Shown: positions 1,160-54,957 of the stretch, one piece after another | Layout: every line of letters starts with the position of its first letter | How positions within the stretch are numbered: position 1 is the stretch's first letter | DNA from: Candidatus Levybacteria bacterium RIFCSPHIGHO2_01_FULL_40_16 | GTDB taxonomy: Bacteria > Patescibacteriota > Microgenomatia > Levybacterales > UBA12049 | Length of the DNA stretch: 64,000 nucleotides | Direction of reading: 5' to 3' | NCBI GenBank assembly: GCA_001783805.1 | Contig: MFNS01000007.1 | Coordinates: forward strand, 89,975 to 153,974 | Position numbers and translations under genes: made by a program | The notes under the pieces: model-generated | The model's input: the letters and a program-made list of their open reading frames with translations, nothing else | The model's database searches: none | Told to the model about the DNA's origin: nothing

Positions 1160-1310
1160 TAATAGCGAGGGGTGGCAAAAGAGGAAGGGCTCCCGACCCC
1201 ACTCCGCTTGAAAGCTTTGAGGGGCAAGCAGCGCTTAGCGGGCTGCGCCACTCCGAAGCCTTGGCGGAGGATGGAGGGATTACTTTTGACAGGACCCCGA
1301 GCAAATAAAT

Positions 1311-5498: not shown

Positions 5499-6284
5499 TT
5501 GACAACGCAATCTCTTTATGATACATTTCTCCCAATGACAAGAGAAAAATCACCAAAATCCGATCTTGAACAACTTGCTATCTCCAGCATGGAAAAGCTC
5601 CGCCTTAATACTTATCCCGGAAGAGGCATAGTGATGGGATTTAATAAACAAGGGGATCAGGCAATTCAGATCTATTGGGTCATGGGAAGAAGTGAAAATT
5701 CCAGGAATAGAATTCTCGTTCAAGAGGGAAACGTTGTTAAAACAAAGCCTTTTGATGCAAGCAAAGTTAAAGACCCAACTTTGATAATCTATACGGCTAT
5801 GAAAGAAGTTAGGGGAGGACACCTCGTATCAAATGGAGATCAGACAGACAGCATAGCTCAAATAATAGAAAAAGGGGGCACCTTTGGAGAGGGGCTAAGG
5901 GAAAGGACGTATGAACCTGATGCGCCAAATTTTACTCCAAGGATTACAGGAGAATACTCGTCTGAATCTGAATCTCCATTTTTTATCCTTTCAATAATCA
6001 GAAAAGATCCCTTTAGTGATCGCCCAATACACAACCTTCAATTATATAAACCCGAGAGTGGAACAGGTAAATGTATTCATACTTATGAAGGAGATGGCAA
6101 TCCTTTACCATCGTTTAAGTTAGATCCTTATCTAGTCACCCTTGAGGGATCAATAGATCAGATAGCACAAACATTCTGGGATTTACTGAATGCAGAAAAC
6201 AGAGTAGCATTAGCTGTAAAAGGGGTCGATATAAGAACTGGAAAGGTAGACTTTAAAATAATTAATCAACTCGGTAATAAATAA
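5499..6284 (+). CDS. purO: Archaeal-type IMP cyclohydrolase (PurO family)
   Basis: YPGRGIV.G...Y.V.GRS..SRNR ... VSNG.QTD ... NFTPRI pattern matches PurO-type IMP cyclohydrolases. Immediately upstream of an AICARFT-only purH. Confidence 0.6.
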   Translation: MTTQSLYDTFLPMTREKSPKSDLEQLAISSMEKLRLNTYPGRGIVMGFNKQGDQAIQIYWVMGRSENSRNRILVQEGNVVKTKPFDASKVKDPTLIIYTAMKEVRGGHLVSNGDQTDSIAQIIEKGGTFGEGLRERTYEPDAPNFTPRITGEYSSESESPFFILSIIRKDPFSDRPIHNLQLYKPESGTGKCIHTYEGDGNPLPSFKLDPYLVTLEGSIDQIAQTFWDLLNAENRVALAVKGVDIRTGKVDFKIINQLGNK

Positions 6285-8696: not shown

Positions 8697-8825
8697 AAAT
8701 TGTTAAGGAAATAATGTTGATAGTTGAGGTTTTGTGGCAAATAACAATATGAATGTCAAAGTAATAGCTACCTTATTTTGCATATCTTAACAAAATCCCA
8801 ACATGGCCAGATTAAGAAAAATCGG

Positions 8826-8930
8826 CTCCTCCGAGAGGATTCGAACCTCTAACCTTGTCCTTAACAGGGACCTGCTCTACCTGCCCGCAATCGCTGAAGC
8901 GATAGCTTCTGCAGGCGGGCCATTGAGCTA
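8826..8930 (-). pseudogene. tRNA-Asn relic: nt 8-17 and nt 18-73 of tRNA-Asn separated by a 40-nt palindromic element in the D-loop; 5' acceptor strand missing
   Basis: 8826-8880 is identical to the 3' 55 nt of the intact tRNA-Asn at 8946-9000. 8921-8930 equals TAGCTCAATG of the D-arm. 8881-8920 is the inserted palindrome. Confidence 0.6.
8881..8920. repeat. 40-nt GC-rich palindromic element (copy b); outer stem GCCCGC/GCGGGC, inner hairpin ATCGC-TGAA-GCGAT
   Basis: Differs from the copy at 9298-9337 at 2 positions, one of them a compensatory C-to-T giving a G-U pair. Same termini as the element in ruvC (49641-49676). Confidence 0.7.
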
Positions 8931-8945
8931 CTATTAGCAATTCTG

Positions 8946-9017
8946 CTCCTCCGAGAGGATTCGAACCTCTAACCTTGTCCTTAACAGGGACCTGCTCTAC
9001 CATTGAGCTACAGAGGA
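8946..9017 (-). tRNA. tRNA-Asn (anticodon GUU), intact
   Basis: Folded by hand. Acceptor UCCUCUG/CGGAGGA with G73, D-arm GCUC-AAUGGUA-GAGC, anticodon loop CUGUUAA, T-arm AGAGG-UUCGAAU-CCUCU. Ends match E. coli tRNA-Asn. Confidence 0.85.
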
Positions 9018-9031
9018 GCAGAATTGCTAGA

Positions 9032-9280
9032 CTACTTTAATCTTCCTTTTAAATATTTTCTACCAAATCCTGTTTTCAGCGCCTTTTCTCTTTTAATAGC
9101 GTTTCCCCTTGATAAACATGCCTCATAGTATACCAAAACCATAGGCGACCTGCTTTTAGTTGCTGTTACTTTTCCCCTGTTGTGTTCTGATACTCTTTCA
9201 ACTAAATCATCGGACCAACCGATATACAAATTATTATCCTTTTTACTTTGCAAAACGTATGTATAAAAAAATTTTGCCAC
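9032..9280 (-). CDS. Small GIY-YIG nuclease family protein (YhbQ/UPF0213-like, 82 aa)
   Basis: FYTYVLQS...NLYIGWSDDLVERVSEHN...YYE...AIKREKALK is a typical small GIY-YIG domain. The likely start is GTG at 9280. The ORF-track ATG at 9340 is created by the tRNA D-loop/palindrome junction and is probably not used. Confidence 0.8.
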   Translation of the reverse strand: MAKFFYTYVLQSKKDNNLYIGWSDDLVERVSEHNRGKVTATKSRSPMVLVYYEACLSRGNAIKREKALKTGFGRKYLKGRLK

Positions 9281-9293
9281 ATCTGCACACTTT

Positions 9294-9354
9294 CTACCTG
9301 CCCGCAATCGCTGAAGTGATAGCTTCTGCAAGCGGGCCATTGAGCTACAGAGGA
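9294..9354 (-). pseudogene. tRNA-Asn 5' fragment (nt 1-17) + 40-nt palindromic element (copy a) + GTAG (nt 18-21), truncated by the GIY-YIG gene
   Basis: 9338-9354 is the reverse complement of UCCUCUGUAGCUCAAUG. 9298-9337 is the palindrome. 9294-9297 is GTAG of the D-loop. Confidence 0.55.
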
Positions 9355-9546
9355 ATGTTAGACAATTTTACCATTAAACAATGGATAAATCTAGGGCTTT
9401 GAAAAGCCTTGAAGGTGCTGGATAATTAAGTTACTATATTAGTGTTACGATTCTCGAGCCAATTTTTTTAGTCTTAGACTTTGATGACTCCGGTAGACAT
9501 TCGAATCTTTTTGGTATAATTACCCCATAAATAGGACGCCACATAT

Positions 9547-10164
9547 ATGAAATTATATCTTTCATCATATCGTTTGGGAAATAGTTCTGAAAAACTAAAA
9601 GAATTATTTTCTGACAATAAAAATATTGCTGTCATAGGCAATGCTATGGATTTTGTGGATGGGATACAAAGAAAAGAAAAGATAAAACAATCAATAACAG
9701 AGTTGAAGAATTTAGGAATGTTTCCCGAAGAAGTAGATTTGCGTGATTATTTTGGAAAACAAAAAGAACTGAGTAAAAAATTAAAGCATTATAATGCCGT
9801 TTATGTCAGGGGAGGAAATACTTTTATTCTAAGACGTGCAATGGCACAAAGTGGTTTTGATAATCTGATGAAAGAGAAAAATAAGGATCCGAATTTTGTT
9901 TATGCAGGTTATAGCGCAGGCATATGTGTATTATCGCCTAATCTTCATGGACTCGAACTTATAGATGATCCAAGCGCGGTTCCGGACGGCTATAATCAAG
10001 AAGTTATTTGGGATGGCTTGGATATTGTCGATTTCTCCATTGCGCCGCATTATAAATCGAACCATCCTGAATCTGAAAACGTAGACAAAGAAGTAGAATA
10101 TTTTCTTAAACACAAAATACCTTTCAAAACTCTTCACGACGGTGAGGTTATTATTAGGGAATAG
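9547..10164 (+). CDS. Peptidase E / S51 family dipeptidase (alpha-aspartyl dipeptidase-like)
   Basis: VYVRGGNTF...AGYSAGICVLSP motifs typical of the peptidase S51 (PepE/cyanophycinase) fold. Confidence 0.65.
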   Translation: MKLYLSSYRLGNSSEKLKELFSDNKNIAVIGNAMDFVDGIQRKEKIKQSITELKNLGMFPEEVDLRDYFGKQKELSKKLKHYNAVYVRGGNTFILRRAMAQSGFDNLMKEKNKDPNFVYAGYSAGICVLSPNLHGLELIDDPSAVPDGYNQEVIWDGLDIVDFSIAPHYKSNHPESENVDKEVEYFLKHKIPFKTLHDGEVIIRE

Positions 10165-10307
10165 TTTTATAATAAATTCTAGCTTCGCTCCATCCAGAGG
10201 CGGGCAAGCATCAGGCGGAGCTGCGTAAGACTATAACCCCAAGCTGGAATCGATCGACTCGGGACGTATAATTGACATCAAAGTTTAAAAGGACTATAAA
10301 CTAGTTA

Positions 10308-12211: not shown

Positions 12212-12300
12212 GTTAAAATAGCCCTTCTGTAAACTCAGGGTAAACTGTCCCTCCAGAGGCGGGCAAGCATTCGGCGGATAAAATTAGCTTCAAATCTCTT

Positions 12301-13214: not shown

Positions 13215-13910
13215 GTGGCGATGAAATCTTTGGAAAATAAAGTTGTGGTTATAACCGGCGGGGCCAAAGGAATCGGATTTGCGGATGCCAAGTTATTTTT
13301 GCAGCGAGGCGCCAAAGTGGCAATCTGCGATCTTTGGGAAAAAGAATTAATCAGTGCTAAAAAAACACTTAAAAAATACGGCGAAGTTTTTGCCAGAGCT
13401 GCGGATATACGCAAAGAAAAAGCAGTTGTAAAATTTGTAAAAGAAGTCATCGCTCATTATGGAAGACTAGATGTTTTGATAAATAATGCCGGAATTTTGC
13501 CTTCGCGCGCAGATTTTTCAGAACAATCACCTTCCGTAATAGATGATGTTATTGATACGAACTTAAAAGGAATTTTATACATGACCCGGGCTGTTATAAA
13601 CCATATGATAAATAAAAAATCCGGAATTATTATTAATATGTCCTCTGTAGCCGGCATTGAGGGGTATGCGGAAATGGCTGTTTATTGCGCCACAAAATTT
13701 GGGATCAGAGGTTTTTCCGAAGCTCTTGATGAAGAAGTTTCCGGACAAGGAATTAAAGTTTACTCAATCTGTCCGGGACCGGTCAAAACTGATTTGAATG
13801 CCGGATTTACCGGCCGGCCAGCGGAAGGAATTCCACCTGAAGAAGTAGCAGAACTGATCGTTAAAATCGTAGCCACTCTTCCCGCATCAAAAACTTGCTT
13901 CGAAATCTAA
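13215..13910 (+). CDS. SDR family NAD(P)-dependent oxidoreductase
   Basis: TGGAKGIG glycine motif, NNAG, and the S...YxxxK (YCATK) catalytic triad. Confidence 0.85.
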   Translation: MAMKSLENKVVVITGGAKGIGFADAKLFLQRGAKVAICDLWEKELISAKKTLKKYGEVFARAADIRKEKAVVKFVKEVIAHYGRLDVLINNAGILPSRADFSEQSPSVIDDVIDTNLKGILYMTRAVINHMINKKSGIIINMSSVAGIEGYAEMAVYCATKFGIRGFSEALDEEVSGQGIKVYSICPGPVKTDLNAGFTGRPAEGIPPEEVAELIVKIVATLPASKTCFEI

Positions 13911-13913
13911 ATG

Positions 13914-13962
13914 TGGCAAGATTTGGCAAGATATGGCAATATTCGGCAAGATCTGGTAAGAT
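13914..13962. repeat. Five tandem ~10-nt direct repeats TGGCAAGATn immediately upstream of the Fic gene
   Basis: TGGCAAGATt TGGCAAGATa TGGCAATATtc GGCAAGATc TGGTAAGAT, read directly from the sequence. Confidence 0.7.
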
Positions 13963-13983: not shown

Positions 13984-14967
13984 ATGAAGATTCCGCCCTC
14001 ATATACCATTTCCGACGAAATGCTTTCGCTAATTACCAAGATTGAAGCGCAGCGTCTATATTTTTCTTCATTAAATCTTGAAAGTCAAATTAAAGAAAAT
14101 ATTCGAAGAGTCAGCCTGTTAAAAAGTTCGCTTTTTTCAGCCCGCATTGAAGGAAATCCTCTGAAAATATCCGATTTTGATTTTTTGTCGGAAACCGAAA
14201 AAGAAAAGAAAAAAGAGATCTTCAATATTGTTGAAGCAATCAACTTTATAGATAAAAAAATCACGAAAATTCCAATTACGAAAGATATTATCTTATCTCT
14301 TCATGCGTGGGTTTTGAAAAATTTATCTCCGGATGCAGGGCATTTCCGAAAAGAAGTCAGTGCAATTTTTAATCAGGCAGGGATGGCTGTTTACATGCCT
14401 CCCCCGCCATCCCAAATTTTAAAATTATTGGATAATCTTTTGATTTATATAAACTCTGAAGAAAAATTTCCTTTGCTTAGGGCTTTTGTTGTCCATCTTA
14501 TCTTTGAAAAAATTCATCCCTTTATTGACGGTAATGGCAGGGTCGGCAGGCTTTTGATTTCGGCAGTTCTTAAGTCGCAAGATTGGGATTTTACTTTCAC
14601 AGTGCCTTTTGAAGAGTATCTGGACGAACATAAAGACGAATATTATTCTCATTTGAATGACGGGTTGAAAAATACCAATGATTATCTTGAATTTATGCTT
14701 GAAGCATTTTACCAACAAATAGAGAGGATAAAAATTCAGGTTAATGCGGAAACCGCCAGAGAAAAGCATCCGTTTCTTCCTCCCCGCCAGGAAGAAATAT
14801 TCAACATTATTAAAGATCAATTTATAGCCTCTTTTGATATGATCCGTAGGCGTTTTATTCAGATTCCGGAAAGAACTCTTCGCTATGATTTAAAAAAGCT
14901 TTTGGATAGAAAACTGATTGAAAAGTCCGGCGAAACCAAAGGAAGATATTATCGAATAAGAAAATAG
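13984..14967 (+). CDS. Fic/DOC family protein (class II, N-terminal inhibitory helix SxxxEG)
   Basis: HPFIDGNGRVGRLL core Fic motif. SARIEGN inhibitory motif near the N-terminus. C-terminal winged-helix-like tail. Confidence 0.9.
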   Translation: MKIPPSYTISDEMLSLITKIEAQRLYFSSLNLESQIKENIRRVSLLKSSLFSARIEGNPLKISDFDFLSETEKEKKKEIFNIVEAINFIDKKITKIPITKDIILSLHAWVLKNLSPDAGHFRKEVSAIFNQAGMAVYMPPPPSQILKLLDNLLIYINSEEKFPLLRAFVVHLIFEKIHPFIDGNGRVGRLLISAVLKSQDWDFTFTVPFEEYLDEHKDEYYSHLNDGLKNTNDYLEFMLEAFYQQIERIKIQVNAETAREKHPFLPPRQEEIFNIIKDQFIASFDMIRRRFIQIPERTLRYDLKKLLDRKLIEKSGETKGRYYRIRK

Positions 14968-17964: not shown

Positions 17965-19764
17965 TTAGGATTTTCCCAAAAGATTAATTGTTGAGGATAG
18001 CTCTTTTTCCAAATCATTAACTTTCTTGAGATCTTCATCTTTTTCACCTTTTCTAAGATTGTCTGAAATCTCCTTGATCTTATTTTTTAAGAAAAGCGCT
18101 CTTAATTCCCTAGCAACTTTTTCCACTTCTTCTGCATGTTTTTTATCCTCCCCAAACGAAGGTATTGGAAATAAATATGCTTTATCGAATGTTGCTGTCA
18201 ACTCTTTGGGAAGAAGATTCAAAAAATACCGGCTATCAAACTTACTATTACTTTTGAAATAATCAGCCAACTCAGAAATTATCTTTTGGTAAGAGTCAAT
18301 TTCAAATTTATAATCTCTGAGAATTGCCAGGCTTCTTTCCAAAATCATTTTTGGATTATCATGCTGGACTAGGAGTGACATTAAATAATCTTCCAAAACC
18401 TCAATTCTTGACCTTTTATCTTTTTTACTAATAAAAACATCTTCTTTCACAACTTCTTTTTTCTCGATTTTTTCTGCTTCCTTTGCTAAGGCATCCAAAG
18501 AAACATCCAGCTCGCGGCCTAACTTCTTCAAATAATGTTCTTTGACTATCTCGTTGGAAATTCTTATAAAAATAGGCAGTAATTCCTGAGCAATTTTTCT
18601 TTTCCCATACACTCTGTCTTTCTCAAAAGCGGAAAATGTTTTTGTGATTAGATAGTCATAAACCGGAATATCTTTTTTTATAGCTTTCTTAAAAGCTGCC
18701 GGATCATTTTTGATTGCTTCATCTGCATCCTTAGCCTGATCAAAAATACAGGTTGTGATATTTATTCCTTTTTTCTCCAAAGAGGGCAGACTTCTTTTTG
18801 TCGCCTCGTATCCCGCATCATCTTTGTCAAAGCAAAGACAGATATTGTTTGTGAAACGGGCGATAAGCGCAACCTGATCATCGGTTAAGGCTGTTCCTTT
18901 TACGGCAACTGCATTTTTAACGCCAATGCTAAAACACGAAATAACATCCAGTTCTCCTTCAACGATAATCGCCTTGTCCAGTTTTTTAATTTCTTCTTTG
19001 GCCGTATTTAAGCCAAAAAACATACTGCCCTTGTGGTAAACAAGCGTATCTCTGGTGTTGATATATTTTCCGCCGCTGTACGGTTCTTCTATCGCACGGC
19101 CTGAAAATCCCGTAATGTTTCCTCTGTGATCAAAAAGGGGAAACATTACTCTATTCCTAAAAAAGTCAAGCACGCTTGCTTGTCCTGAGCTAGTCGAAGG
19201 ACCTCTTCCGTAAAATGCCAGCCCTGCCTCTACCAAGTCTTCTTTTTTATATTTTTTTTTATTGATTAAATAATTGGACAAATCAACGCCATCTTTTGGA
19301 GAAAATCCAATCATAAAAGTTTCGATTAGTCTTTCATCCAACTTTCTTTCTTTTTTTAAATAAGTAAGCGCTTTTTTACCGGCCTTATGGCTGGTTAGGA
19401 CATAATGATAAAATTCCATTGCCAGTTTATCTAACTTGTAAATTATTTCTTTTTTTGAAGAGAGTCCCTCTTGAAAGCCGGATTCACGAAGATGTATTCC
19501 GGTTTTCTTTGCCAAAATGCGGAGTGCTTCTATAAATTCCAAATGTTCATACTCCATTAAAAATGTATAAACATCCCCGCCCTTGCTACATCCCCCGAAG
19601 CAATGCCAGATTTGCCGCTCAGGAGAAACAATAAAAGACGGAGTTTTCTCGTTATGAAAGGGGCAAATCGCTTTGAAATTCCTTCCCATTTTTTTTAGAG
19701 GAATATATTCGGAGATAAAAGAAACCAAGTCTATTCTTTCCCTGATTTGCGTAACTTCATCCAT
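17965..19764 (-). CDS. dnaG: DNA primase DnaG
   Basis: N-terminal zinc ribbon [11 protein letters not shown]...CFGC and TOPRIM EGELD...DKDDAG. Contains a GC-rich in-frame insert ([17 protein letters not shown], about 19180-19230). Confidence 0.9.
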
Positions 19765-30956: not shown

Positions 30957-31949
30957 CTATGCAGAAATTCCCATTTTCTCTTTGACAATTTTGAGGGTTT
31001 GGGAGGATTTGGTCTTAGCAAATTCAGCTCCTTCATCTAAAACTTGTCTTAATAACTTATCGCCCGATCTTATTCCCTGATATTTTTTTTGGATTTGGCT
31101 CAAAGATGAAACCAGTAAACCCGCCAAAATAGATTTGAATTCGCCGTAAGATTTTCCTACTAATTCTGAAGTCGAGTTTTTGAAACTTTGATTTTTGAAA
31201 ACAGAATAAATTGTTACAAGATTGGCAATTGCTTCCGAAGGATTTTTGGAAATACTGGAGCCGGAATCCGTCACTGCTCTTCTTACCTTTTCCCTAATTT
31301 CTTTTTCACTATCTAATAAATTAATTGTTCCCAACGGATCTTTGTCGGATTTACTCATTTTGGAATTCGGATTTTGCAGACTCATTACTCTGGCAGTTTC
31401 TTTTTGAATTACCGGCACAGGAAGTTTAAAAGTTTCTCCATATTTTTTATTAAATTTTTCTGCCAGATCGCGGGTTAATTCAATGTGCTGTTTTTGATCT
31501 TCCCCAACCGGCACCTCATCTGTTTGATAAAGTAAAATGTCGGAAGCCATCAAAACCGGGTAATCAAAAAGCCCAACATTCGCTTCGTGTTTTTCGCTTT
31601 TTTCTTTAAACTGGGTCATTCTTTCCAGTTGTCCGAAAGGTGTAATCGTATTTAAAAGCCAGGTAAAATACGGATGGTCGGGATTTTCGGATTGAATAAA
31701 AATGTGCGCTTTTTTAGGATTAATTCCACAGGCCAAATACAAAGCGGCTACTTCCAATACTTTTTCTTGCAATATTTTCGGATCTTGAGGTACGGTGATA
31801 GCGTGCAAATCAACAATGCAAAAAAATAATTCTGAATTCTGAATTCTAGATTCTGAATTCTGCAGATTAACCCATTGACTTAATGCGCCAATATAATTTC
31901 CGATATGCAGATTTCCTGATGGCTGAACTCCGGAAAACACTGTTTTCAT
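30957..31949 (-). CDS. trpS: Tryptophanyl-tRNA synthetase
   Basis: HIGNYIGAL (HIGH) and KMSKS. Contains an in-frame tandem heptamer insert near the N-terminus. Confidence 0.9.
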   Translation of the reverse strand: MKTVFSGVQPSGNLHIGNYIGALSQWVNLQNSESRIQNSELFFCIVDLHAITVPQDPKILQEKVLEVAALYLACGINPKKAHIFIQSENPDHPYFTWLLNTITPFGQLERMTQFKEKSEKHEANVGLFDYPVLMASDILLYQTDEVPVGEDQKQHIELTRDLAEKFNKKYGETFKLPVPVIQKETARVMSLQNPNSKMSKSDKDPLGTINLLDSEKEIREKVRRAVTDSGSSISKNPSEAIANLVTIYSVFKNQSFKNSTSELVGKSYGEFKSILAGLLVSSLSQIQKKYQGIRSGDKLLRQVLDEGAEFAKTKSSQTLKIVKEKMGISA

Positions 31950-32036
31950 ATTCCAAACCTCCCGCTTGCCCTTCCGTAGCCTTGGCGAAGGAGGGAAAAA
32001 ACCGTTTTCATATTATTCCTAGTTTATCACAATTTA

Positions 32037-34989: not shown

Positions 34990-34995
34990 AAAAAG

Positions 34996-35067
34996 TACCA
35001 GGGGTGGGGATCGGACCCACAACCGCAGCGTTATGAATGCTGTGCTCCACCATTGAGCTACCCTGGC
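34996..35067 (-). tRNA. tRNA-Met (anticodon CAU), elongator-type, intron-less
   Basis: Hand fold: acceptor GCCAGGG/CCCUGGU, D-arm GCUC-AAUGGUG-GAGC, anticodon loop UUCAUAA, T-arm GUGGG-UCCGAUC-CCCAC. Confidence 0.8.
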
Positions 35068-35871: not shown

Positions 35872-36143
35872 CGCGGGGTAGTGTACAGTGCACGTGAGGC
35901 TCAAAATGGGCCTCCCGCCAAGTAATTGACGGGAAGAACTTAGCTATATCGGTGAAACCCTAGATGGATTCAGGGTAATACCGAGGGAATCCCGATTCGA
36001 TCGGGAACTCCGTAGAGACTACACGCTAAGCCCCCTGCACATTTCAAAGATGTGAGAGGGGTGAAGATATAGTCCGACACTCTGGGTAACCGGAGCAACA
36101 GATGCATAATCTCACAGGTCGGGCGCAACTCCCGACCCCGCAA
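35872..36143 (+). tRNA. Initiator-like tRNA-Met (CAU) interrupted by a group I intron: exon 1 35872-35901, exon 2 36105-36143
   Basis: Acceptor CGCGGGG/CCCCGCA + A73 (C1xA72 mismatch, identical to E. coli tRNA-fMet). Anticodon stem UGAGG/UCUCA. Spliced loop CU-CAU-AA. Atypical D-loop (ACAGU) and T-loop (CGCAACU). Confidence 0.75.
35902..36104 (+). ncRNA. Group I self-splicing intron (203 nt) between U33 and C34 of the tRNA
   Basis: P1 is exon GAGGCU pairing with GGGCCUC, with U-G at the splice site. P-like AAUUGACGGGAAG (35924-35936). R CCGUAGAGACUACACG (36010-36025). P8 hairpin (36032-36061). S GAAGAUAUAGUCCGAC (36063-36078). P9 ACUCUGG-GUAA-CCGGAG (36079-36095). Terminal G at 36104. Confidence 0.8.
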
Positions 36144-38095: not shown

Positions 38096-38102
38096 AATAA
38101 TG

Positions 38103-38173
38103 TAGGCCCAGGGGGAATCGAACCCGCATCAGGTGTGTATAAGACACCCGCTTTACCATTAAGCTATGGGCCT
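38103..38173 (-). tRNA. tRNA-Ile with anticodon UAU (reads AUA)
   Basis: Hand fold: acceptor AGGCCCA/UGGGCCU, D-arm GCUU-AAUGGUA-AAGC, anticodon stem GGUGU/ACACC with loop CUUAUAC, T-arm GCGGG-UUCGAUU-CCCCC (one C-C mismatch). Confidence 0.7.
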
Positions 38174-49777: not shown

Positions 49778-50584
49778 ATGTACAATATCCAAATCATGAA
49801 AAGGTATAAATTGGCAGTTGAGGCAAGAAAAGTTTTGGGGAAAAAAGTTGCCAAACTCCGCAAAGAAGGTCTATTTCCGGCAAATATTTATGGAAAAGGC
49901 GTAAAATCTCTTTCCGTGCAAGTTCCCTACAAAGATTTTGAAAAAGTTTACAAAGAAGCAGGCCTTACAGGCATTGTGGATGTTGAAGTTGCAGGTGAAG
50001 TCAGACCATCCTTAATTCACAACGTTCAGCAAGATTATTACAAACACGTGCTCCTCCACGCAGATTTTTTCCAAGTTAATCTTAAAGAAAAAGTTAAGAC
50101 CATGGTCAAAGTCGTTACTCTTGGCGAGCCAAAAGCAGTTTCCGAGAAGCTTGGTTTACTCATGCAAACTCTTAACGAGGTCGAAATCGAGGCTCTTCCT
50201 ACAGATTTGCCGGACAAAATCGAAGTTAACGTTGAGTCCTTGGCAGTTCTAGATGCACAAATTGCTGTTGGCGAAATTAAGGCGCCAGTCGGCGTGACGA
50301 TTTTGACCGATGCATCTCAAGTCGTTGCCAAGATTGGCTCATTAATCAGTAAGGAAGCTGCAGAACAAGCCGCAGCCGAAGTTGCAGCTGCCGCAGCCGC
50401 TAAAGCAGCCGCCGCTCCGGTAACGCCCGAGGCAGGAGTAGAAGGAGCAGTCCCGGCAGAAGGAGAAGCTGCCGCGCAGCCCGCAGCCGAAGCCGGAAAG
50501 CCAACGGTTGGAGCAGAAAGTGCAGCCGCACCCAAACCGGAAGCTACAGCGGCTACTTCAGGACAAGCAAAACCACAAAAATAA
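49778..50584 (+). CDS. rplY: 50S ribosomal protein bL25 (Ctc form) with an Ala/Pro-rich C-terminal tail
   Basis: N-terminal bL25 domain (RKEGLFPANIYGKG) and Ctc-type C-terminal domain. Confidence 0.85.
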   Translation: MYNIQIMKRYKLAVEARKVLGKKVAKLRKEGLFPANIYGKGVKSLSVQVPYKDFEKVYKEAGLTGIVDVEVAGEVRPSLIHNVQQDYYKHVLLHADFFQVNLKEKVKTMVKVVTLGEPKAVSEKLGLLMQTLNEVEIEALPTDLPDKIEVNVESLAVLDAQIAVGEIKAPVGVTILTDASQVVAKIGSLISKEAAEQAAAEVAAAAAAKAAAAPVTPEAGVEGAVPAEGEAAAQPAAEAGKPTVGAESAAAPKPEATAATSGQAKPQK

Positions 50585-50585
50585 C

Positions 50586-51071
50586 TTACTTGTTTACGAG
50601 GAATTTTTCCAACCTTTGTCCGTCTGTAGAGCTTGGATCCAAAATAAGCCCTTTTTCAAGGTGCGTTTTTGCCTTTGAGGTATTTCCCAGCTTATACTCC
50701 AAAATAGAAGCTTGAAAATAGGCAATCGGATAATTTTGGCGCTTGGAAATAAAGTCTTTCCAGAAATTTAATTCTCTATTTAAAATTATTCTTTGGGAGT
50801 CAATATCTTGTTTTATCTGTAAATTTTCTTGAAAATCCAGTCCCACAATAATAACCGCCACGATAAAAATAAAGACAACAAAAACCCTCAAGGCTCCCCC
50901 ATAGAGCTTAATCAGGGTTACATGATTAATTTTTGGTAAAGAAAATTTAAAATTAACGGGTTTGCCCGCCGAAGCTTTAACGGATGCGGGAATAGCTCGG
51001 GAATTACTCGGGGATTGTTTGTTTTTTCCGCCAGCTGGCGGACTTTTCTTTTTTATGTTCTTAAACTTCAT
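50586..51071 (-). CDS. Hypothetical membrane-anchored protein with a TPR-like C-terminus
   Basis: One TM. 4-nt overlap with the valS stop. Confidence 0.4.
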   Translation of the reverse strand: MKFKNIKKKSPPAGGKNKQSPSNSRAIPASVKASAGKPVNFKFSLPKINHVTLIKLYGGALRVFVVFIFIVAVIIVGLDFQENLQIKQDIDSQRIILNRELNFWKDFISKRQNYPIAYFQASILEYKLGNTSKAKTHLEKGLILDPSSTDGQRLEKFLVNK

Positions 51072-53266
51072 AATGAGGGTTTACCCGCCGACTTGTCCGC
51101 CAAAGCTTTAGCGACGGCGAAGGCGGGCCATTTATCAATCATTACGGATTCCCCAAACTTAAATCTCTGATAAATTTCTTCTGTCACAAAAGGCATAAAA
51201 GGATGCAATAATTTGAGAAGTGTTAAGTATAATGTATTAAGTATTATGTATGATTCAGGATTAAGTCGATCTTTGATGTCTTCTATGTATTTATCAGCGA
51301 ATTCGTGCCAGGCAAATTCATATAAACTTTCTGCGGCATAGTTAAAATTATAAGATTCCAGATGTTTAGTTATTTCGTTAGTTAGCTGCTTAGTTTTTTC
51401 AATCATCTCCCTGTCATTATTATTCTTCGCCAATTCCAATAATTCTTCTATTGAATTTTGCTTGTCCGCCGACTTGTCCGCCAAAGCTTTAGCGACGGTG
51501 GAAGCTTTAGCGAAGGCGGAAGTTCGGTTCATTTCGATGAACCGCCCCATATTCCACAGTTTATTGGTAAACTTCCGCGTCGCGTCCAACTTGGGATAGG
51601 ACAAAGCCTGATCATTACCCGTGGCATTTCCGTAAATTAGGGCAAAACGTACCGCATCTGCCCCGTATTGATCAACCAACTCCAAAGGATTAATCGCATT
51701 GCCCTTGGACTTGCTCATCTTTTTCCCATATGGGTCATTAACCAAACCGTGCAAAACAACATTTCTAAACGGTACCTTCCCTGTTCTATAGATTCCTACC
51801 ATTACCATTCTTGCAACCCACCAACGTAGAATATCGTACCCTGTTTCCATTACGGAAGTTGGATAGAATCTATCAAAAAAACCACCTGATCCATCACAAT
51901 CGCAATTTGCCATTAAAGTTGAAAATGGCCATTGGGCTGATGAAAACCAAGTGTCAAAAGTATCCTCGTCCTGTTTCCAACTTTCTCCCTTTGGCGCTTC
52001 ACCCTCTGTAATCACCCATTCTCCGGTTTTCGAATTTTTCCAGGCTGGGATTCTTATCCCCCACACAATCTGACGACTAATGTTCCAATCTCTGATATTC
52101 TCCAAAAAGTCTAGATAAGTTTTTTCAAATCTTTGCGGATGAAATTTAATTTCTCCTTTTTTAAGAACATCTATCGCGGTTTTTGCCAATCTTTCCATTT
52201 TTACAAACCACTGCGGCAAAAGCATTGGTTCAATGGTTGTCTCACACTTATAACAAGTTTCTATAGTATGAATGTAGTTTTCATCAATCTTTTCTATCAA
52301 TCCCATCTTTTGCATGTCTTCTGCAACTGCCTTTCTTGCCTGTCTGACATACAATCCTTGATACTTTCCTGTTTTTTCATTGAGTTTTCCGTCGAAGCCA
52401 ATTACTTGAACAATATCTAAGTTGTGCTTTTTGCCTATTTCAAAATCTTTCATGTCATGAGCCGGAGTCACTTTAGCAACGCCGGTTCCAAAATTTGGAT
52501 CGATTAAATCGTCTGCGATAACCTTTACCTTAAATTTGCCATTTACTCCTTGCACTTCAATTTCTTTCCCAACCCATTTCTGATAACGCTTATCCTCTGG
52601 ATTAATTGCCACAGCGGTGTCTCCAAACTTTGTTTCCGGTCTAACTGTTGCCAAAACAAAAGGTCCGTATTTTATGTAATAAAAGGGGTCTTTTTGCTCT
52701 TTGTGATTAACCTCAAGATCCGAAAAAGAAGTGCCGCACTTGGTACAGTAATTTACAAGCCTATCTCCTCTGTAAATAAATCCTTCATCATACAGCTTTT
52801 TGAAGGTCTGATAAGCTATTTTGATGATGTCTTGATCAAGAGTAAATTTTTTCCGAGACCAATCCAGAGAGAAACCAAGTCTACGCAATTGACTCTCCAT
52901 TCCTCCCCTGTTCTCTTGTACAAAATCCCAAATCATTTTATAAAGAGTATTCCTATCAAAGTCAAACCTGGACTTACCTTCCTTCTGTAGTTTTTTTTCA
53001 AAAACAAACTGTGTTTCAAATCCGGCATGATCTGCTCCGGGAAGCCAAAGAGCTGCATTCCCGAGCATGCGGTGATAACGAATTAAAACATCTTCAACTA
53101 CATACATTGCGTGACCAAAATGAAGGGGTGCATTGGCATTTGGAGGCGGCAAAATAATGCAGTAAGGTTTACCTTTCGGATTTACTTCCGGTTTGAAATA
53201 ACCTTTTTCTTCCCAAACTTTATAGATTTTTTCCTCAACATCCTTGTGATTATAAACTTTGTCCAT
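51068..53266 (-). CDS. valS: Valyl-tRNA synthetase (compact, 732 aa) carrying two copies of an in-frame repeat (VAKALADKSA)
   Basis: PPPNANAPLHFGHA (HIGH region, ValRS-like PPPNxxG) and KMSKSKGN. Repeats at 51086-51118 and 51463-51495. Confidence 0.75.
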   Translation of the reverse strand: MDKVYNHKDVEEKIYKVWEEKGYFKPEVNPKGKPYCIILPPPNANAPLHFGHAMYVVEDVLIRYHRMLGNAALWLPGADHAGFETQFVFEKKLQKEGKSRFDFDRNTLYKMIWDFVQENRGGMESQLRRLGFSLDWSRKKFTLDQDIIKIAYQTFKKLYDEGFIYRGDRLVNYCTKCGTSFSDLEVNHKEQKDPFYYIKYGPFVLATVRPETKFGDTAVAINPEDKRYQKWVGKEIEVQGVNGKFKVKVIADDLIDPNFGTGVAKVTPAHDMKDFEIGKKHNLDIVQVIGFDGKLNEKTGKYQGLYVRQARKAVAEDMQKMGLIEKIDENYIHTIETCYKCETTIEPMLLPQWFVKMERLAKTAIDVLKKGEIKFHPQRFEKTYLDFLENIRDWNISRQIVWGIRIPAWKNSKTGEWVITEGEAPKGESWKQDEDTFDTWFSSAQWPFSTLMANCDCDGSGGFFDRFYPTSVMETGYDILRWWVARMVMVGIYRTGKVPFRNVVLHGLVNDPYGKKMSKSKGNAINPLELVDQYGADAVRFALIYGNATGNDQALSYPKLDATRKFTNKLWNMGRFIEMNRTSAFAKASTVAKALADKSADKQNSIEELLELAKNNNDREMIEKTKQLTNEITKHLESYNFNYAAESLYEFAWHEFADKYIEDIKDRLNPESYIILNTLYLTLLKLLHPFMPFVTEEIYQRFKFGESVMIDKWPAFAVAKALADKSAGKPSL

Positions 53267-53348
53267 GAAGCAATTTTAACACAGACGATATTAATCTCAA
53301 AGTTCAACTAGTAAGACCCAAAATATCAGAAGAATTATATATTAAATA

Positions 53349-53531
53349 CTACCCGCAGACGTCGTTCCATTTTTCGACATTCAGGCTACTTTGGATATCG
53401 GAAACGCCCTTCTTCTTGATTTCTGTTTTTGAACTACTTTTTTTTGCTACTTCTGGAACTGCAGTTTTGCTTATAATGGCATCTACTTCTCCTGTCTGCC
53501 GTTTTACAAAATTAACTTCTACATGATTCAT
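53349..53531 (-). CDS. Small hypothetical ORF (60 aa)
   Basis: ORF only. Confidence 0.2.
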   Translation of the reverse strand: MNHVEVNFVKRQTGEVDAIISKTAVPEVAKKSSSKTEIKKKGVSDIQSSLNVEKWNDVCG

Positions 53532-53655
53532 AATTAATTGTTCACTTTATATCACAACTGCAAATTCATTGTCAACTTGAGAAATCGATTCCCGAAGATT
53601 TAACGAAGAATTCCCTACTTCGGCCGCCATAGCTTTAGCGACGGCGGCAAGAGGC

Positions 53656-54957
53656 CTAGACTTCTACCATCTTGTAGCCTCTGGTTTTGACGGTTTGAAT
53701 TTCAAATTTGGCGTTTTGCGATTTTAATTTCACCCGTAAACGGGCAACCAATCTGTCAATCGCCCAGTCAGATACCCCAAGCTCTTCAACTTCGGACCAG
53801 ACTGCCTCAATGATCTCTTCTCTCTCGCAAATAACGTTGATTTTACTTTTAAGAAAAGTAAAAAGTAAATGTTCTTTTTTACTCAAGTCAACGCTCACAG
53901 CATTTCCCTTAGTAATTTGTCTTTGTTTTAAGTAATGGCTAAAAAGTGGACTAAACACCCCGCTTTTTCCTTTTTCCTCAGATATAAATCCGCTATCCCA
54001 CAAATAGGTTGCAGATTTTCTTTCTTCAGAAGTTATTTTTAGATCTTTTTCTATTTTTAATAAAACACCCTGTTCGATGCTATTTAAACTTTCCCATAGT
54101 TCTTCTGATTGCAAAATTATCCTTTCGTCTTTTGACAGAAAATCTAAAATTTCCGCTTTGTTTTTCAACCTTACGTCTGATTCATGAAGGGAAATTAAAG
54201 CCAGTTGCAAATATTGCACATAACCGTCAACAATCTCAAAAAGAGAATCTTTCAAAGAATCCGACAAGGCAAGTGTATATTTAGTTTTATAAGTATCAAA
54301 GATAATTTGCGTATCTTTATATTCGGCCGGTTTGATATACATGTTTTGCGCAAAAAGAGAAATTGAGGATTTTGTAAAAATCTCTGGCGCCAAATCTGTT
54401 AATCCCCTAAAACTGGTAAAAACATAAGAGACTTTTTGATTTGCCGCATCCTTTAACCCCTGCAGGTTTCCGAATAATTCAGATGTGATAATTTCTTTTA
54501 GTCGATCAAAGCGTATAAGAAATATTGTCGGCAAAACGTTTTCATTGGTTATCTTTGCCAGGCTTTTTTTAATATTTTCTATGGTTAAAAAGGTATCTTT
54601 TGACTGCATACTGTCTAAGAATAATCTTTCGATATATTTTTTGGTTGGTTCTTGCAAAACCGAATTCTCCACACTATCCACAATTCTTTTAAGTGTTAGT
54701 ATCCAAAAAGGAAAAATTTCTCTTTCAACCAAGTCATTGAGGTCAACGGGGATAAAAAGGTGCGAAGAGCCATCGGCAATATAGGTCTTGGCAATCCCTT
54801 GATGATTGAGAAAAAAACGGAGAAAATTACTGATGCCCACCCTCTTTATCCCAATCAGCACAACGTTATTGCGGTTTTTCAGATGCTGTCCCAAAGTCGC
54901 AGCATCGTCTTTCCTGAAGGAAATAGGATACAAAGCCTCAATTATTTTGTTCTCCAT
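53656..54957 (-). CDS. Putative regulator: degenerate NTPase-like N-terminal domain fused to a C-terminal OmpR/PhoB-type winged-helix DNA-binding domain
   Basis: C-terminal AIDRLVARLRVKL...VKTRGYKMV is a classic trans_reg_C. N-terminal VVLIGIKRVGISNF resembles a degenerate P-loop. Confidence 0.55.
   Translation of the reverse strand: MENKIIEALYPISFRKDDAATLGQHLKNRNNVVLIGIKRVGISNFLRFFLNHQGIAKTYIADGSSHLFIPVDLNDLVEREIFPFWILTLKRIVDSVENSVLQEPTKKYIERLFLDSMQSKDTFLTIENIKKSLAKITNENVLPTIFLIRFDRLKEIITSELFGNLQGLKDAANQKVSYVFTSFRGLTDLAPEIFTKSSISLFAQNMYIKPAEYKDTQIIFDTYKTKYTLALSDSLKDSLFEIVDGYVQYLQLALISLHESDVRLKNKAEILDFLSKDERIILQSEELWESLNSIEQGVLLKIEKDLKITSEERKSATYLWDSGFISEEKGKSGVFSPLFSHYLKQRQITKGNAVSVDLSKKEHLLFTFLKSKINVICEREEIIEAVWSEVEELGVSDWAIDRLVARLRVKLKSQNAKFEIQTVKTRGYKMVEV

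Follow-up and report, generated by a model that had tools for sequence, protein, structure and literature searches.

A 30-nucleotide hairpin repeat nested in frame within the valS gene of a Levybacteria genome and shared by many bacterial phyla

We analysed a stretch of 64,000 nucleotides (hereafter the window) from the genome of Candidatus Levybacteria bacterium RIFCSPHIGHO2_01_FULL_40_16 (contig MFNS01000007.1), in which a GC-rich sequence occurs twice within valS, the gene for valine-tRNA ligase (ValRS). We found that each of the two sites holds a complete copy of a 30-nt hairpin element that is nested in frame within another copy of the same element. The family to which this element belongs has at least seven members in the window, and matches to it were found in many classes of Patescibacteria and in more than ten other phyla. 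The explanation that we favour, with a probability of about 0.7, is that these repeats are a selfish hairpin of the type known from repetitive extragenic palindromic (REP) sequences and Rickettsia palindromic elements (RPE), which would multiply as DNA and survive in genes only where its translation is harmless.

The valS product matches the Pfam families tRNA-synt_1 (1e-119) and Anticodon_1 (4e-29), and its closest relatives are proteins named valine--tRNA ligase from Candidatus Levybacteria, a lineage of Patescibacteria. An earlier reading made from the letters of the window (the sequence-only reading) had reported an exact 33-nt repeat in valS at 51086-51118 and 51463-51495. The repeat (CCGCCGACTTGTCCGCCAAAGCTTTAGCGACGG) was indeed present exactly twice in the window, although its positions had to be corrected by 1 to 3 nt to 51085-51117 and 51466-51498 (coordinates of the plus strand). 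No such exact 33-mer pair appeared in 100 shuffles. The copies are spaced by 381 nt, and the 127 codons between them agree with the previous estimate of about 130. As had also been claimed, both are in frame and read VAKALADKSA, one of them as residues 591-600 of ValRS and the other in the C-terminal tail (KWPAFAVAKALADKSAGKPSL, followed by the stop codon). A 14-nt core (AGCTTTAGCGACGG) of the repeat is found again at 53631-53644, in the spacer 8 nt past the stop codon of the upstream regulator gene, and once more, with a single mismatch, at 51503-51516; the window holds four matches to this core against 0.23 expected. The exact core in the spacer, together with a covariance-model match at 53618-53648, bears out the related intergenic copy that had been reported at 53618-53650. 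The G+C content of the window is 38.6%, and the 33-mer repeats stand out as local GC peaks.

The earlier view that these sequences form a repeat family was correct, but the unit of the family is a 30-nt hairpin and not the 33-mer, which consists of an inner element from its fifth base on plus 7 nt (TCGGCGG) of the right arm of an outer element. The sense strand of the internal site consists of TCCGCCTTCGCTAAAGCT, TCCACCGTCGCTAAAGCTTTGGCGGACAAG and TCGGCGGACAAG in succession, which is a consensus outer element (30 nt when uninterrupted, TCCGCCTTCGCTAAAGCT^TCGGCGGACAAG) split at GCT^TCGG by a complete inner element. At the C-terminal site the succession of CCCGCC, TTCGCCGTCGCTAAAGCTTTGGCGGACAAG and TCGGCGGGTAAA forms a nested double that is without 12 nt of the outer loop; relative to the canonical 60-nt composite, this loss keeps the reading frame. 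The two inner copies were the two best matches in the window (47.9 and 44.9 bits) to a covariance model, R1, that was built solely from copies in other organisms and without any window sequence. Partial R1 matches (51461-51472 and 51503-51511) flank the inner copy at the linker. For the C-terminal site, RNA folding of 51075-51135 predicted that the segment at 51080-51091 pairs with 51122-51127 (−23.6 kcal/mol, z −2.2). The orthologous loci L001 and L003 allowed a comparison at the DNA level. L001 has at the linker a single, uninterrupted outer element (CCGTCTTCGCTAAAGCTTCGACGGACAAG, at 5747-5776 of that locus, R1 48.7 bits), and the window has the same element with an interruption of exactly 30 additional bases, whereas L003 is without it. 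A GC hairpin is present at the 3′ end of valS in the window, L001 and L003 alike, with a different sequence in each, and in L003 the TAA of the hairpin loop is the stop codon of valS.

The protein alignment comprised the window ValRS and 31 orthologues. The internal site is a hypervariable linker that joins the catalytic body to the anticodon-binding domain and directly follows the conserved NKLWNMxRFIEMKR. In P0002, the closest orthologue (78-80% identity), both segments are missing, and the linker of P0004 (73%) reads NRTSVFAKAST-DKQKSK, which is the window sequence minus exactly VAKALADKSA. At the C-terminus, P0002, P0003, P0006 and most others end at or just after a conserved WP, and a minority have tails such as FGSAQGKPTI or FDSFGKAQDKSAQSKPSI. 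Other orthologues contain quite different short GC-type peptides at the linker. Among these, P0007, P0016, P0051, P0061 and P0011 hold unrelated short inserts (for example FHPLPFPLSPRRERAGVRG, DVILSGNEGSLDSSAPPQND and ELVSESSTEEDEMPKQVRHD), which look like translations of other dispersed repeat families, and because such inserts occur there in other Levybacteria, the linker appears to be a general landing place. In an AlphaFold model of ValRS the predicted local distance difference test (pLDDT) score is 61-64 at residues 581-610, where the flanks reach 88-89, and below 50 at residues 717-732; both inserts therefore lie outside the confidently folded core. From the intact frames we infer that translation of the elements gives ValRS flexible Ala/Lys-rich segments outside this core.

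The sequence-only reading had regarded the segments in valS, dnaG and trpS as small GC-rich insertions tolerated by several essential genes. For valS and dnaG this was upheld, and for trpS it was not. The valS segments proved to be insertions rather than ancestral sequence, as judged by the orthologues that lack one or both, and the DnaG segment, which follows AGLAFY, is present in about half of the Levybacteria orthologues, the rest having an SGSRV-like sequence at this place. The orthologue alignments thus confirm the segments of both genes as lineage-variable insertions, that of dnaG being in frame as had been proposed. The insert in TrpRS is also real, but it is AT-rich and does not extend the N-terminus, which is unchanged. 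The heptamer tract at 31831-31865 instead adds SESRIQN in a loop after WVNLQ, about 30 residues from the N-terminus and inside the coding sequence; most TrpRS orthologues are without this segment and a few have it in common. This insert is an AT-rich heptamer microsatellite event that is unrelated to the hairpin family.

The element can be written as YCCNCC-TTCGCTAAAGCTTC-GGNGGR-CAAG, that is, a 6-bp GC-rich stem enclosing a conserved interior of 14 nt (TTCGCTAAAGCTTC), followed by CAAG as a 3′ tail. Its full 30-nt consensus is YCCNCC TT CGCTAAAGC TTC GGNGGR CAAG with random flanks. We scanned one genome per species with the pattern CGCTAAAGCTTNGRNGGNCAAG and obtained matches on at least 120 contigs, where about 9 would be expected by chance under the assumption of uniform base composition. 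The repeat family is real in this genome, as had been stated, but it extends over many bacterial phyla. Besides many classes of Patescibacteria, the matches listed include Verrucomicrobiota, Lentisphaeria, Planctomycetota, Bacteroidota, Balneolaceae, Ignavibacteriaceae, Gamma- and Alphaproteobacteria, Desulfuromonadota, Acidobacteriota, Omnitrophota, Elusimicrobia, Chloroflexota and Bdellovibrionota. Cultured strains are among them (Bradyrhizobium spp., Chryseolinea serpens DSM 24574, Rhodohalobacter halophilus, Aliifodinibius and Geomesophilobacter). Apart from the members in the window (at least 7 in 64 kb), 23 extra unseeded copies were found in 678 kb of the loci of other organisms. All counts of copies given below refer to the matches listed.

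When these copies were aligned on the scan pattern, conservation started abruptly 8 nt upstream of it (position −8) and stopped at +21, where the pattern ends. The left arm, which the pattern leaves free, was complementary to the right arm. Stem pair 1/26 was C-G in 52 copies, T-A in 51, A-T in 3 and G-C in 2, and pair 4/23 was G-C in 42, T-A in 30, C-G in 9 and A-T in 4, with 30 mismatches. In 79 distinct copies 93.5% of the stem cells were paired, compared to 86.1% after shuffling (none of 500 shuffles reached 93.5%) and 31-54% with slid partners. The element is thereby a short GC-rich imperfect palindrome in the 20-40 bp range of REP sequences, and two of its stem pairs covary. A different hairpin, centred on AAGCTT, was rejected: it requires an invariant G as the partner of position 23, yet this position varies with position 4. 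With respect to the flanks, target-site duplications were not apparent, since 4-mer flank repeats were seen in none of 120 listed copies and 3-mer repeats in 4 of 120. Microhomology of 1-2 nt was mildly over-represented at the 3′ junction. GCT stood directly 5′ of 17 of the 122 copies (14%, about 2 being expected), and coding copies were preceded by many different codons. In Rfam 15, no family matched the elements, either over 50500-54000 with E-values up to 10 or over the whole window at the gathering threshold.

Copies inside genes behave as would be expected of sequences that are read through. We excised the copies virtually and counted those in genomes with less than 50% GC for which the open reading frame (ORF) over the junction spanned 200 codons or more and stayed open for 20 or more codons on either side. 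By this count there were 32 coding copies, of which 31 were in a stop-free phase against two thirds expected (binomial P of about 4e-5). As many as 23 of the 32 (72%) were in sense phase 0, where they read (S/P)xFAKASx(D/G)K. A separate ORF caller gave 34 coding copies in sense and 7 in antisense orientation. Because the unit is exactly 10 codons long and four of its six phase and orientation combinations are stop-free, genic copies keep the frame; the avoidance of the stop-containing phases implies that the inserts are read through and not removed. Removal by splicing, as for an intron or intein, was accordingly rejected on the grounds that 31 of 32 coding copies are in an open phase and that the loop TAA serves as the valS stop codon in L003. 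About half of the copies in genomes below 50% GC (41 of 86) lie wholly inside long ORFs. Relative to the genes beside them, the intergenic copies are oriented without bias (same/same 7, opposite/opposite 10, mixed 13), and strand-specific insertion was therefore discarded as the cause of the sense bias in genes. We infer instead that the phase and orientation bias within genes results from purifying selection on the encoded peptide and not from directed insertion. The host proteins are unrelated to each other (aminoacyl-tRNA synthetases (aaRS), AtpD, DnaG and hypothetical proteins), with class I aaRS genes and the N-terminus of the ATP synthase beta subunit recurring.

Nesting of the kind found in valS is common. 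The junction GGCGGACAAG-TC-GGCGGG was found in 40 metagenome stretches with at least 15 distinct contexts, in the form CCCGCCTTCGCCAAGGCT, TCCGCCGACGCTAAAGCTTTGGCGGACAAG and TCGGCGGGCAAG, and nearly all of these stretches have the nested double in its full length of 60 nt, which reads PAFAKAS-ADAKALADKS-AGK within long ORFs. In unrelated organisms, unambiguous nested inserts also occur in the apical loop of the element itself at CGCT^AAAG (L006 and L024), and further inserts occur in the loops of other hairpin repeats (L023 and L034) and in tRNA-like D-arm fragments at TAGCT^CAG (L020, L029, L051 and L120). These nested inserts are exact additions of 30 nt without flank duplication. In Bradyrhizobium (L034 and L116) the 30-nt element was seen inside another, well-populated palindromic repeat of the CGTC type, CTGGATTGCT^...^TCGCTGCGCTCGCAATGAC, a case of one repeat family inserted in the loop of another. 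A tRNA gene was detected by ARAGORN within 200 nt of 13 of the 122 copies. Several copies come directly after GTAGCT, with which the D-arm of a tRNA starts. The idea that the element inserts inside intact tRNA genes was dropped, as virtual excision followed by ARAGORN restored essentially no tRNA; the GTAGCT contexts are tRNA-like fragments.

[quoted passage not shown] Neither assignment stood up: the CAAG tail at the 3′ end (CTTG on the other strand) matches neither the GTAG nor the CGTC tag that defines the known REP superfamilies, with random sequence beyond the 5′ end, and the terminal inverted repeats and target-site duplications of MITEs were not found. The element nonetheless resembles REP sequences in being a GC-rich imperfect hairpin of 20-40 nt with a short unpaired conserved tail at one end, in its dispersal, with copies that in many cases lie just a few nucleotides past genes and are frequently grouped or combined, and in its in-frame copies, which recall the 'REP-decorated' proteins that have 10-30 extra residues, sometimes twice per ORF (PMC3733652). 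Intragenic REPs of the GTAG- and CGTC-tagged superfamilies, including two per ORF and often in genes for replication or repair, are known from earlier work (Di Nocera et al. 2013, PMC3733652). Unlike REPs, the combined copies of the 30-nt element are nested in loops and are not head-to-head dimers, and its length is strictly 10 codons. REPs are also predominantly extragenic, whereas about half of the copies of this element are coding, although its intergenic copies in the window do sit just past stop codons. The same sequence, including the non-palindromic 14-nt interior, is moreover common to many phyla.

Rickettsia palindromic elements were reportedly described by Ogata et al. in 2000 and by Claverie and Ogata in 2003; RPE-1 is about 100-150 bp long and confined to Rickettsia. 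RPEs are the classic translated palindromes (PMC3733652). Like them, the present element is a palindromic repeat that is found in frame in essential protein genes, tolerated at surface or linker positions, present or absent among orthologues and, as its intact frames suggest, translated. It differs from them by its length of 30 nt, its occurrence in a Patescibacteria genome, its sharing among phyla and its one strongly preferred phase. Hairpin derivatives of the IS200/IS605 type (REPIN/RAYT and PATE) have in common with it the absence of target duplications and terminal inverted repeats, a hairpin beside a conserved terminal tetranucleotide, and insertions 3′ of a short GCT in foldable single-stranded places (hairpin loops and tRNA D-loop-like sequences). 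However, it has a single hairpin rather than two ends, GCT flanks only 14% of the listed copies, and the fixed left-flank tetra- or pentanucleotide that such derivatives have at every copy was not found. A mechanistic likeness to IS200/IS605 is put forward as a hypothesis only. The GC clusters of yeast mitochondria and the hairpin elements of sponge mitochondria (PMC2800124) are likewise short GC-rich hairpins in AT-rich genomes that occur in intergenic and coding DNA, with in-frame insertions, but they have other hosts and unrelated sequences and are not shared across bacterial phyla. A full-text literature search over about 8 million papers gave no occurrence of the DNA core or of the peptides FAKASADK, FAKASEGK, SLKLRRT, RSFSEGG and FAKASAGK, and a search for the concept of the element returned only REP, RPE and MITE literature. 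Thus, no earlier description of the family was found, while its architecture and behaviour match the known REP/RPE kind.

According to the explanation that we favour, that of a selfish hairpin, new copies would often land in the loops of older copies and thereby give rise to the recurrent 60-nt nested double, and copies in coding DNA would survive at linkers and termini, where a flexible Ala/Lys-rich decapeptide does no harm. The spread itself, which is the weakest step, might involve an enzyme acting on single-stranded or hairpin DNA, such as an HUH-type nuclease acting in trans, or template switching at hairpins. The loop targets and the conserved CAAG end suggest a nuclease that acts on single-stranded hairpins; template switching between hairpins is possible, and the microhomology excess at the 3′ junction is compatible with it. 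Several observations weigh against this explanation. The element is almost absent from viral contigs (4 matches), and 72,556 plasmids gave partial Thermus matches only, so that no vehicle for its spread between phyla is apparent. An all-against-all BLASTP comparison of 2930 ORFs from 120 loci of 8 kb around listed copies revealed no recurrent transposase-like family as a mobilising enzyme, and because GCT flanks only 17 of the 122 listed copies, a mechanism like that of IS200/IS605 with a strict target is not supported for most copies. The near-identity of the 14-nt interior across phyla exceeds what a purely selfish hairpin would need and hints at a conserved recognition factor or function. 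The GC hairpin at the 3′ end of valS in all three orthologues examined could mean positional selection, and translation of the elements is deduced from intact frames. In the same BLASTP comparison the largest ORF cluster was that of the class I aaRS genes that host copies; a 'master' gene near the copies was rejected for the loci compared, and no RAYT or Y1 transposase was seen near copies in a search confined to the ORFs of these 8-kb loci.

The gene-end positions raise the question of whether the hairpins are functional RNA elements, that is, 3′-end stabilisers, terminators without a U-tract or processing signals, the coding copies being the same signal overlapping gene ends. Such roles have been proposed earlier for REP sequences downstream of genes. 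In the window, intergenic copies lie 8 to 38 nt past the stop codon of a co-oriented gene (53618-53648, 1197-1228 and 10186-10208), and the persistence of a GC hairpin at the valS 3′ end despite differing sequences, the loop-derived stop codon of L003, the compensatory stem changes and the 13 of 122 listed copies close to tRNA genes could be taken in the same sense. We nevertheless regard this explanation as improbable, since across the 120 listed loci the intergenic copies have no orientation preference, many copies lie deep in long ORFs, hundreds of codons from either end, and copies are present or absent between close relatives without visible compensation. Furthermore, no T-run follows the copies, and the RNA folds are only about 2 standard deviations better than shuffles. 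Some copies at gene ends may have a role as RNA hairpins, but the mid-gene copies and the missing orientation bias argue against this as the general explanation. Selection for an Ala/Lys-rich linker or tail module in the protein (FAKAS.., AKALADKS), with the DNA likeness as a by-product of codon choice, would account for the strong excess of one reading phase (23 of 32 coding copies) and for the loop variants GCTAAAGCT and GCCAAGGCT, which are synonymous in that both encode AKA. The same two changes, T to C and A to G, are however also a compensatory pair change, the arms covary as base pairs, and the third codon positions of the left arm, which the pattern left free, match the other positions in conservation. 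As about half of the copies have the same DNA sequence while being intergenic or in a stop-containing phase, and the hosts are unrelated proteins, we consider a protein module very unlikely.

A narrower question is how valS came to contain two identical 33-mers. It is conceivable, though we think it the less probable course, that gene conversion or template switching between two outer elements already in place produced the second copy from the first, over a distance of 381 nt. The identity takes in 7 nt of the outer right arm, and the inner copies agree in a rarer variant (GT at positions 7-8, T at position 20). In the C-terminal composite 12 nt of the outer loop are missing, as might result from a conversion tract that ended inside the element, and the L001 elements are simpler at both sites. 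Yet the junction GGCGGACAAG-TC-GGCGG exists in at least 15 unrelated contexts and in other lineages, and the 7 shared outer bases are the family consensus; because this junction recurs in unrelated contexts, the identity is also expected from two independent insertions at a preferred GCT^TCGG. A trivial origin of the duplicate as an assembly or chimera artefact, which the sequence-only reading had named as a way in which it could fail, deserves hardly any credence. Short exact repeats can lead assemblers astray, and the genome was assembled from a metagenome, but the 33-nt repeat is shorter than a sequencing read and relatives have homologous elements at the same sites. An assembly duplication is excluded because the identical 732-aa ValRS with both segments is recorded from 12 contigs of independent Rifle groundwater assemblies and separate samples (protein accessions OGH24205.1 and OGH28874.1; longest contig 776 kb).

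If the explanation as a selfish hairpin is right, essential enzymes of small-genome groundwater bacteria (ValRS, DnaG and the ATP synthase beta subunit) are being extended by a selfish cassette of 10 codons. Such a process would matter for the question of how linkers and tails arise in proteins, and for the alignment and annotation of proteins of Patescibacteria (the candidate phyla radiation, CPR), where spurious 'low-complexity' segments, shifted starts and stops, and stop codons donated by the element are to be reckoned with. REP-type repeats are normally lineage-specific. That a 30-nt sequence is nearly identical across phyla is not due to chance and would imply either horizontal movement by a route as yet unknown or a conserved cellular factor that reads the element; either answer would be new for repeats of this type. 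A more far-reaching proposal, which we offer tentatively and hold to be somewhat doubtful, is that the element represents an undescribed kind of minimal mobile DNA: a 10-codon unit of a single 30-nt hairpin, spread among or retained in more than ten phyla with a nearly unchanged 14-nt interior, which would insert without target duplication into single-stranded loops (its own loops and tRNA D-loop-like sequences), be readable in four of six phases and so write (S/P)xFAKASx(D/G)K into hundreds of unrelated proteins, the interior being the recognition site of a widespread enzyme. With the covariance model and the exact definition of the unit, it is directly feasible to take a census of copies and to look for the partner enzyme.

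Features of the hairpin family and of its host gene valS in the window. Sequences are those of the sense strand where so marked; scores are those of covariance model R1.
Feature	Position	Strand	Sequence and reading	R1 score	Remarks
valS (valine-tRNA ligase, 732 aa)	51068..53266	-			ORF and Pfam; host of two composite inserts
Inner 30-nt element, internal valS site	51473..51502	-	sense TCCACCGTCGCTAAAGCTTTGGCGGACAAG, read STVAKALADK	47.9 bits, E 5e-11	missing at the orthologous L001 position (exactly 30 nt difference)
Outer element, left part, internal valS site	51503..51520	-	sense TCCGCCTTCGCTAAAGCT, read SAFAKA
Outer element, right part, internal valS site	51461..51472	-	sense TCGGCGGACAAG, read SADK
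Inner 30-nt element, valS C-terminal tail	51092..51121	-	sense TTCGCCGTCGCTAAAGCTTTGGCGGACAAG, read FAVAKALADK	44.9 bits, E 3e-10
Outer hairpin, right arm and tail, C-terminal site	51080..51091	-	sense TCGGCGGGTAAA, read SAGK
Outer hairpin, left arm, C-terminal site	51122..51127	-	sense CCCGCC, read PA
Predicted junction-spanning peptides of the ValRS inserts (examples)			FIEMNRTSAFAK, ASTVAK, ALADKSADKQNSIEELLELAK
Intergenic member	53618..53648	-	sense GCCGCCGTCGCTAAAGCTATGGCGGCCGAAG	21.7 bits, E 7e-4
Member in N-terminal part of small ORF 50586-51071, downstream of valS	50961..50990	-	CCCGCATCCGTTAAAGCTTCGGCGGGCAAA, read PASVKASAGK	26.2 bits, E 4e-5	double copy at the same place in L001, none in L003
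Intergenic member, 4-nt loop variant	1197..1228	+	CCCCACTCCGCTTGAAAGCTTTGAGGGGCAAG	34.4 bits
Partial antisense copy after 1197..1228	1252-1271	antisense		13.8 bits
Member with loop variant	31965..31995	-	CGCCAAGGC	20.1 bits	16 nt upstream of the trpS start codon (31949)
Shorter relative inside dnaG	19179..19202	-	GTCCTTCGACTAGCTCAGGACAAG	10.8 bits, E 0.7	weak match
Short-loop relative	10186..10208	+	ends in GGCGGGCAAG	12.8 and 17.5 bits for the two short-loop copies	22 nt past the stop of ORF 9547-10164; direct repeat family D13
Second short-loop copy	12249-12267			see preceding line

The intergenic member next to the OmpR-like regulator gene (53656-54957) lies 8 nt past its stop codon; its orthologue is present in L001 (3895-3921) and absent from L003. 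Immediately 3′ of this spacer element, upstream of valS, we observed a direct repeat T(C/A)GGGAAT-N13-TCGGGAAT that is conserved in all three genomes (53570-53605 on the minus strand of the window, 3925-3960 in L001 and 895-930 in L003), and similar CGGGAAT repeats are located at 50990-51020. This direct repeat could be a candidate binding site of the adjacent winged-helix (Trans_reg_C) regulator; the window as a whole has 6 matches to the TCGGGAAT motif where 2.9 would be expected, which is no significant enrichment. On the 5′ side of the element upstream of trpS and adjoining it, the minus strand has at 31997-32011 a 15-nt sequence (ATGAAAACGGTTTTT) that nearly repeats the actual start of trpS (ATGAAAACAGTGTTTT, 31949). 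This gives the impression that the gene was separated from its original 5′ end by the element, and that a new start with its own GGGAGG site now follows.

Some further features of the window were recorded. The gene for ribosomal protein L25 (49778-50584, 268 aa) contains a stretch of 65-68% G+C (50360-50570, plus strand) that encodes an Ala/Pro/Glu-rich low-complexity C-terminal tail (AAEQAAAEVAAAAAAKAAAAPVTPEAG...); this tail differs in kind from the extensions made by the hairpin family. On the minus strand at 8819-9360, an intact tRNA-Asn gene (8945-9017) stands between two partial copies of itself, both of which have a 39-nt GC hairpin (CCCGCCTGCAGAAGCTATCGCTTCAGCGATTGCGGGCAG) in the D-loop at AATGG^GTAGA, and between the partial copies lies a 102-aa ORF (9032-9340) that resembles a GIY-YIG nuclease by sequence. 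This arrangement may have been left behind by a homing or mobile element with the tRNA gene as its target. Rfam identified a group I catalytic intron at 35892-36096 on the plus strand (67.9 bits, E 4.5e-15), which adjoins a tRNA-Met gene (34995-35067, minus strand), and ARAGORN identified a tRNA-Ile with anticodon TAT (UAU) at 38102-38173 on the minus strand. Lastly, four tandem 10-nt units (TGGCAAGATn) are present at 13908-13953 on the plus strand, between the ORFs 13215-13910 and 13984-14967.

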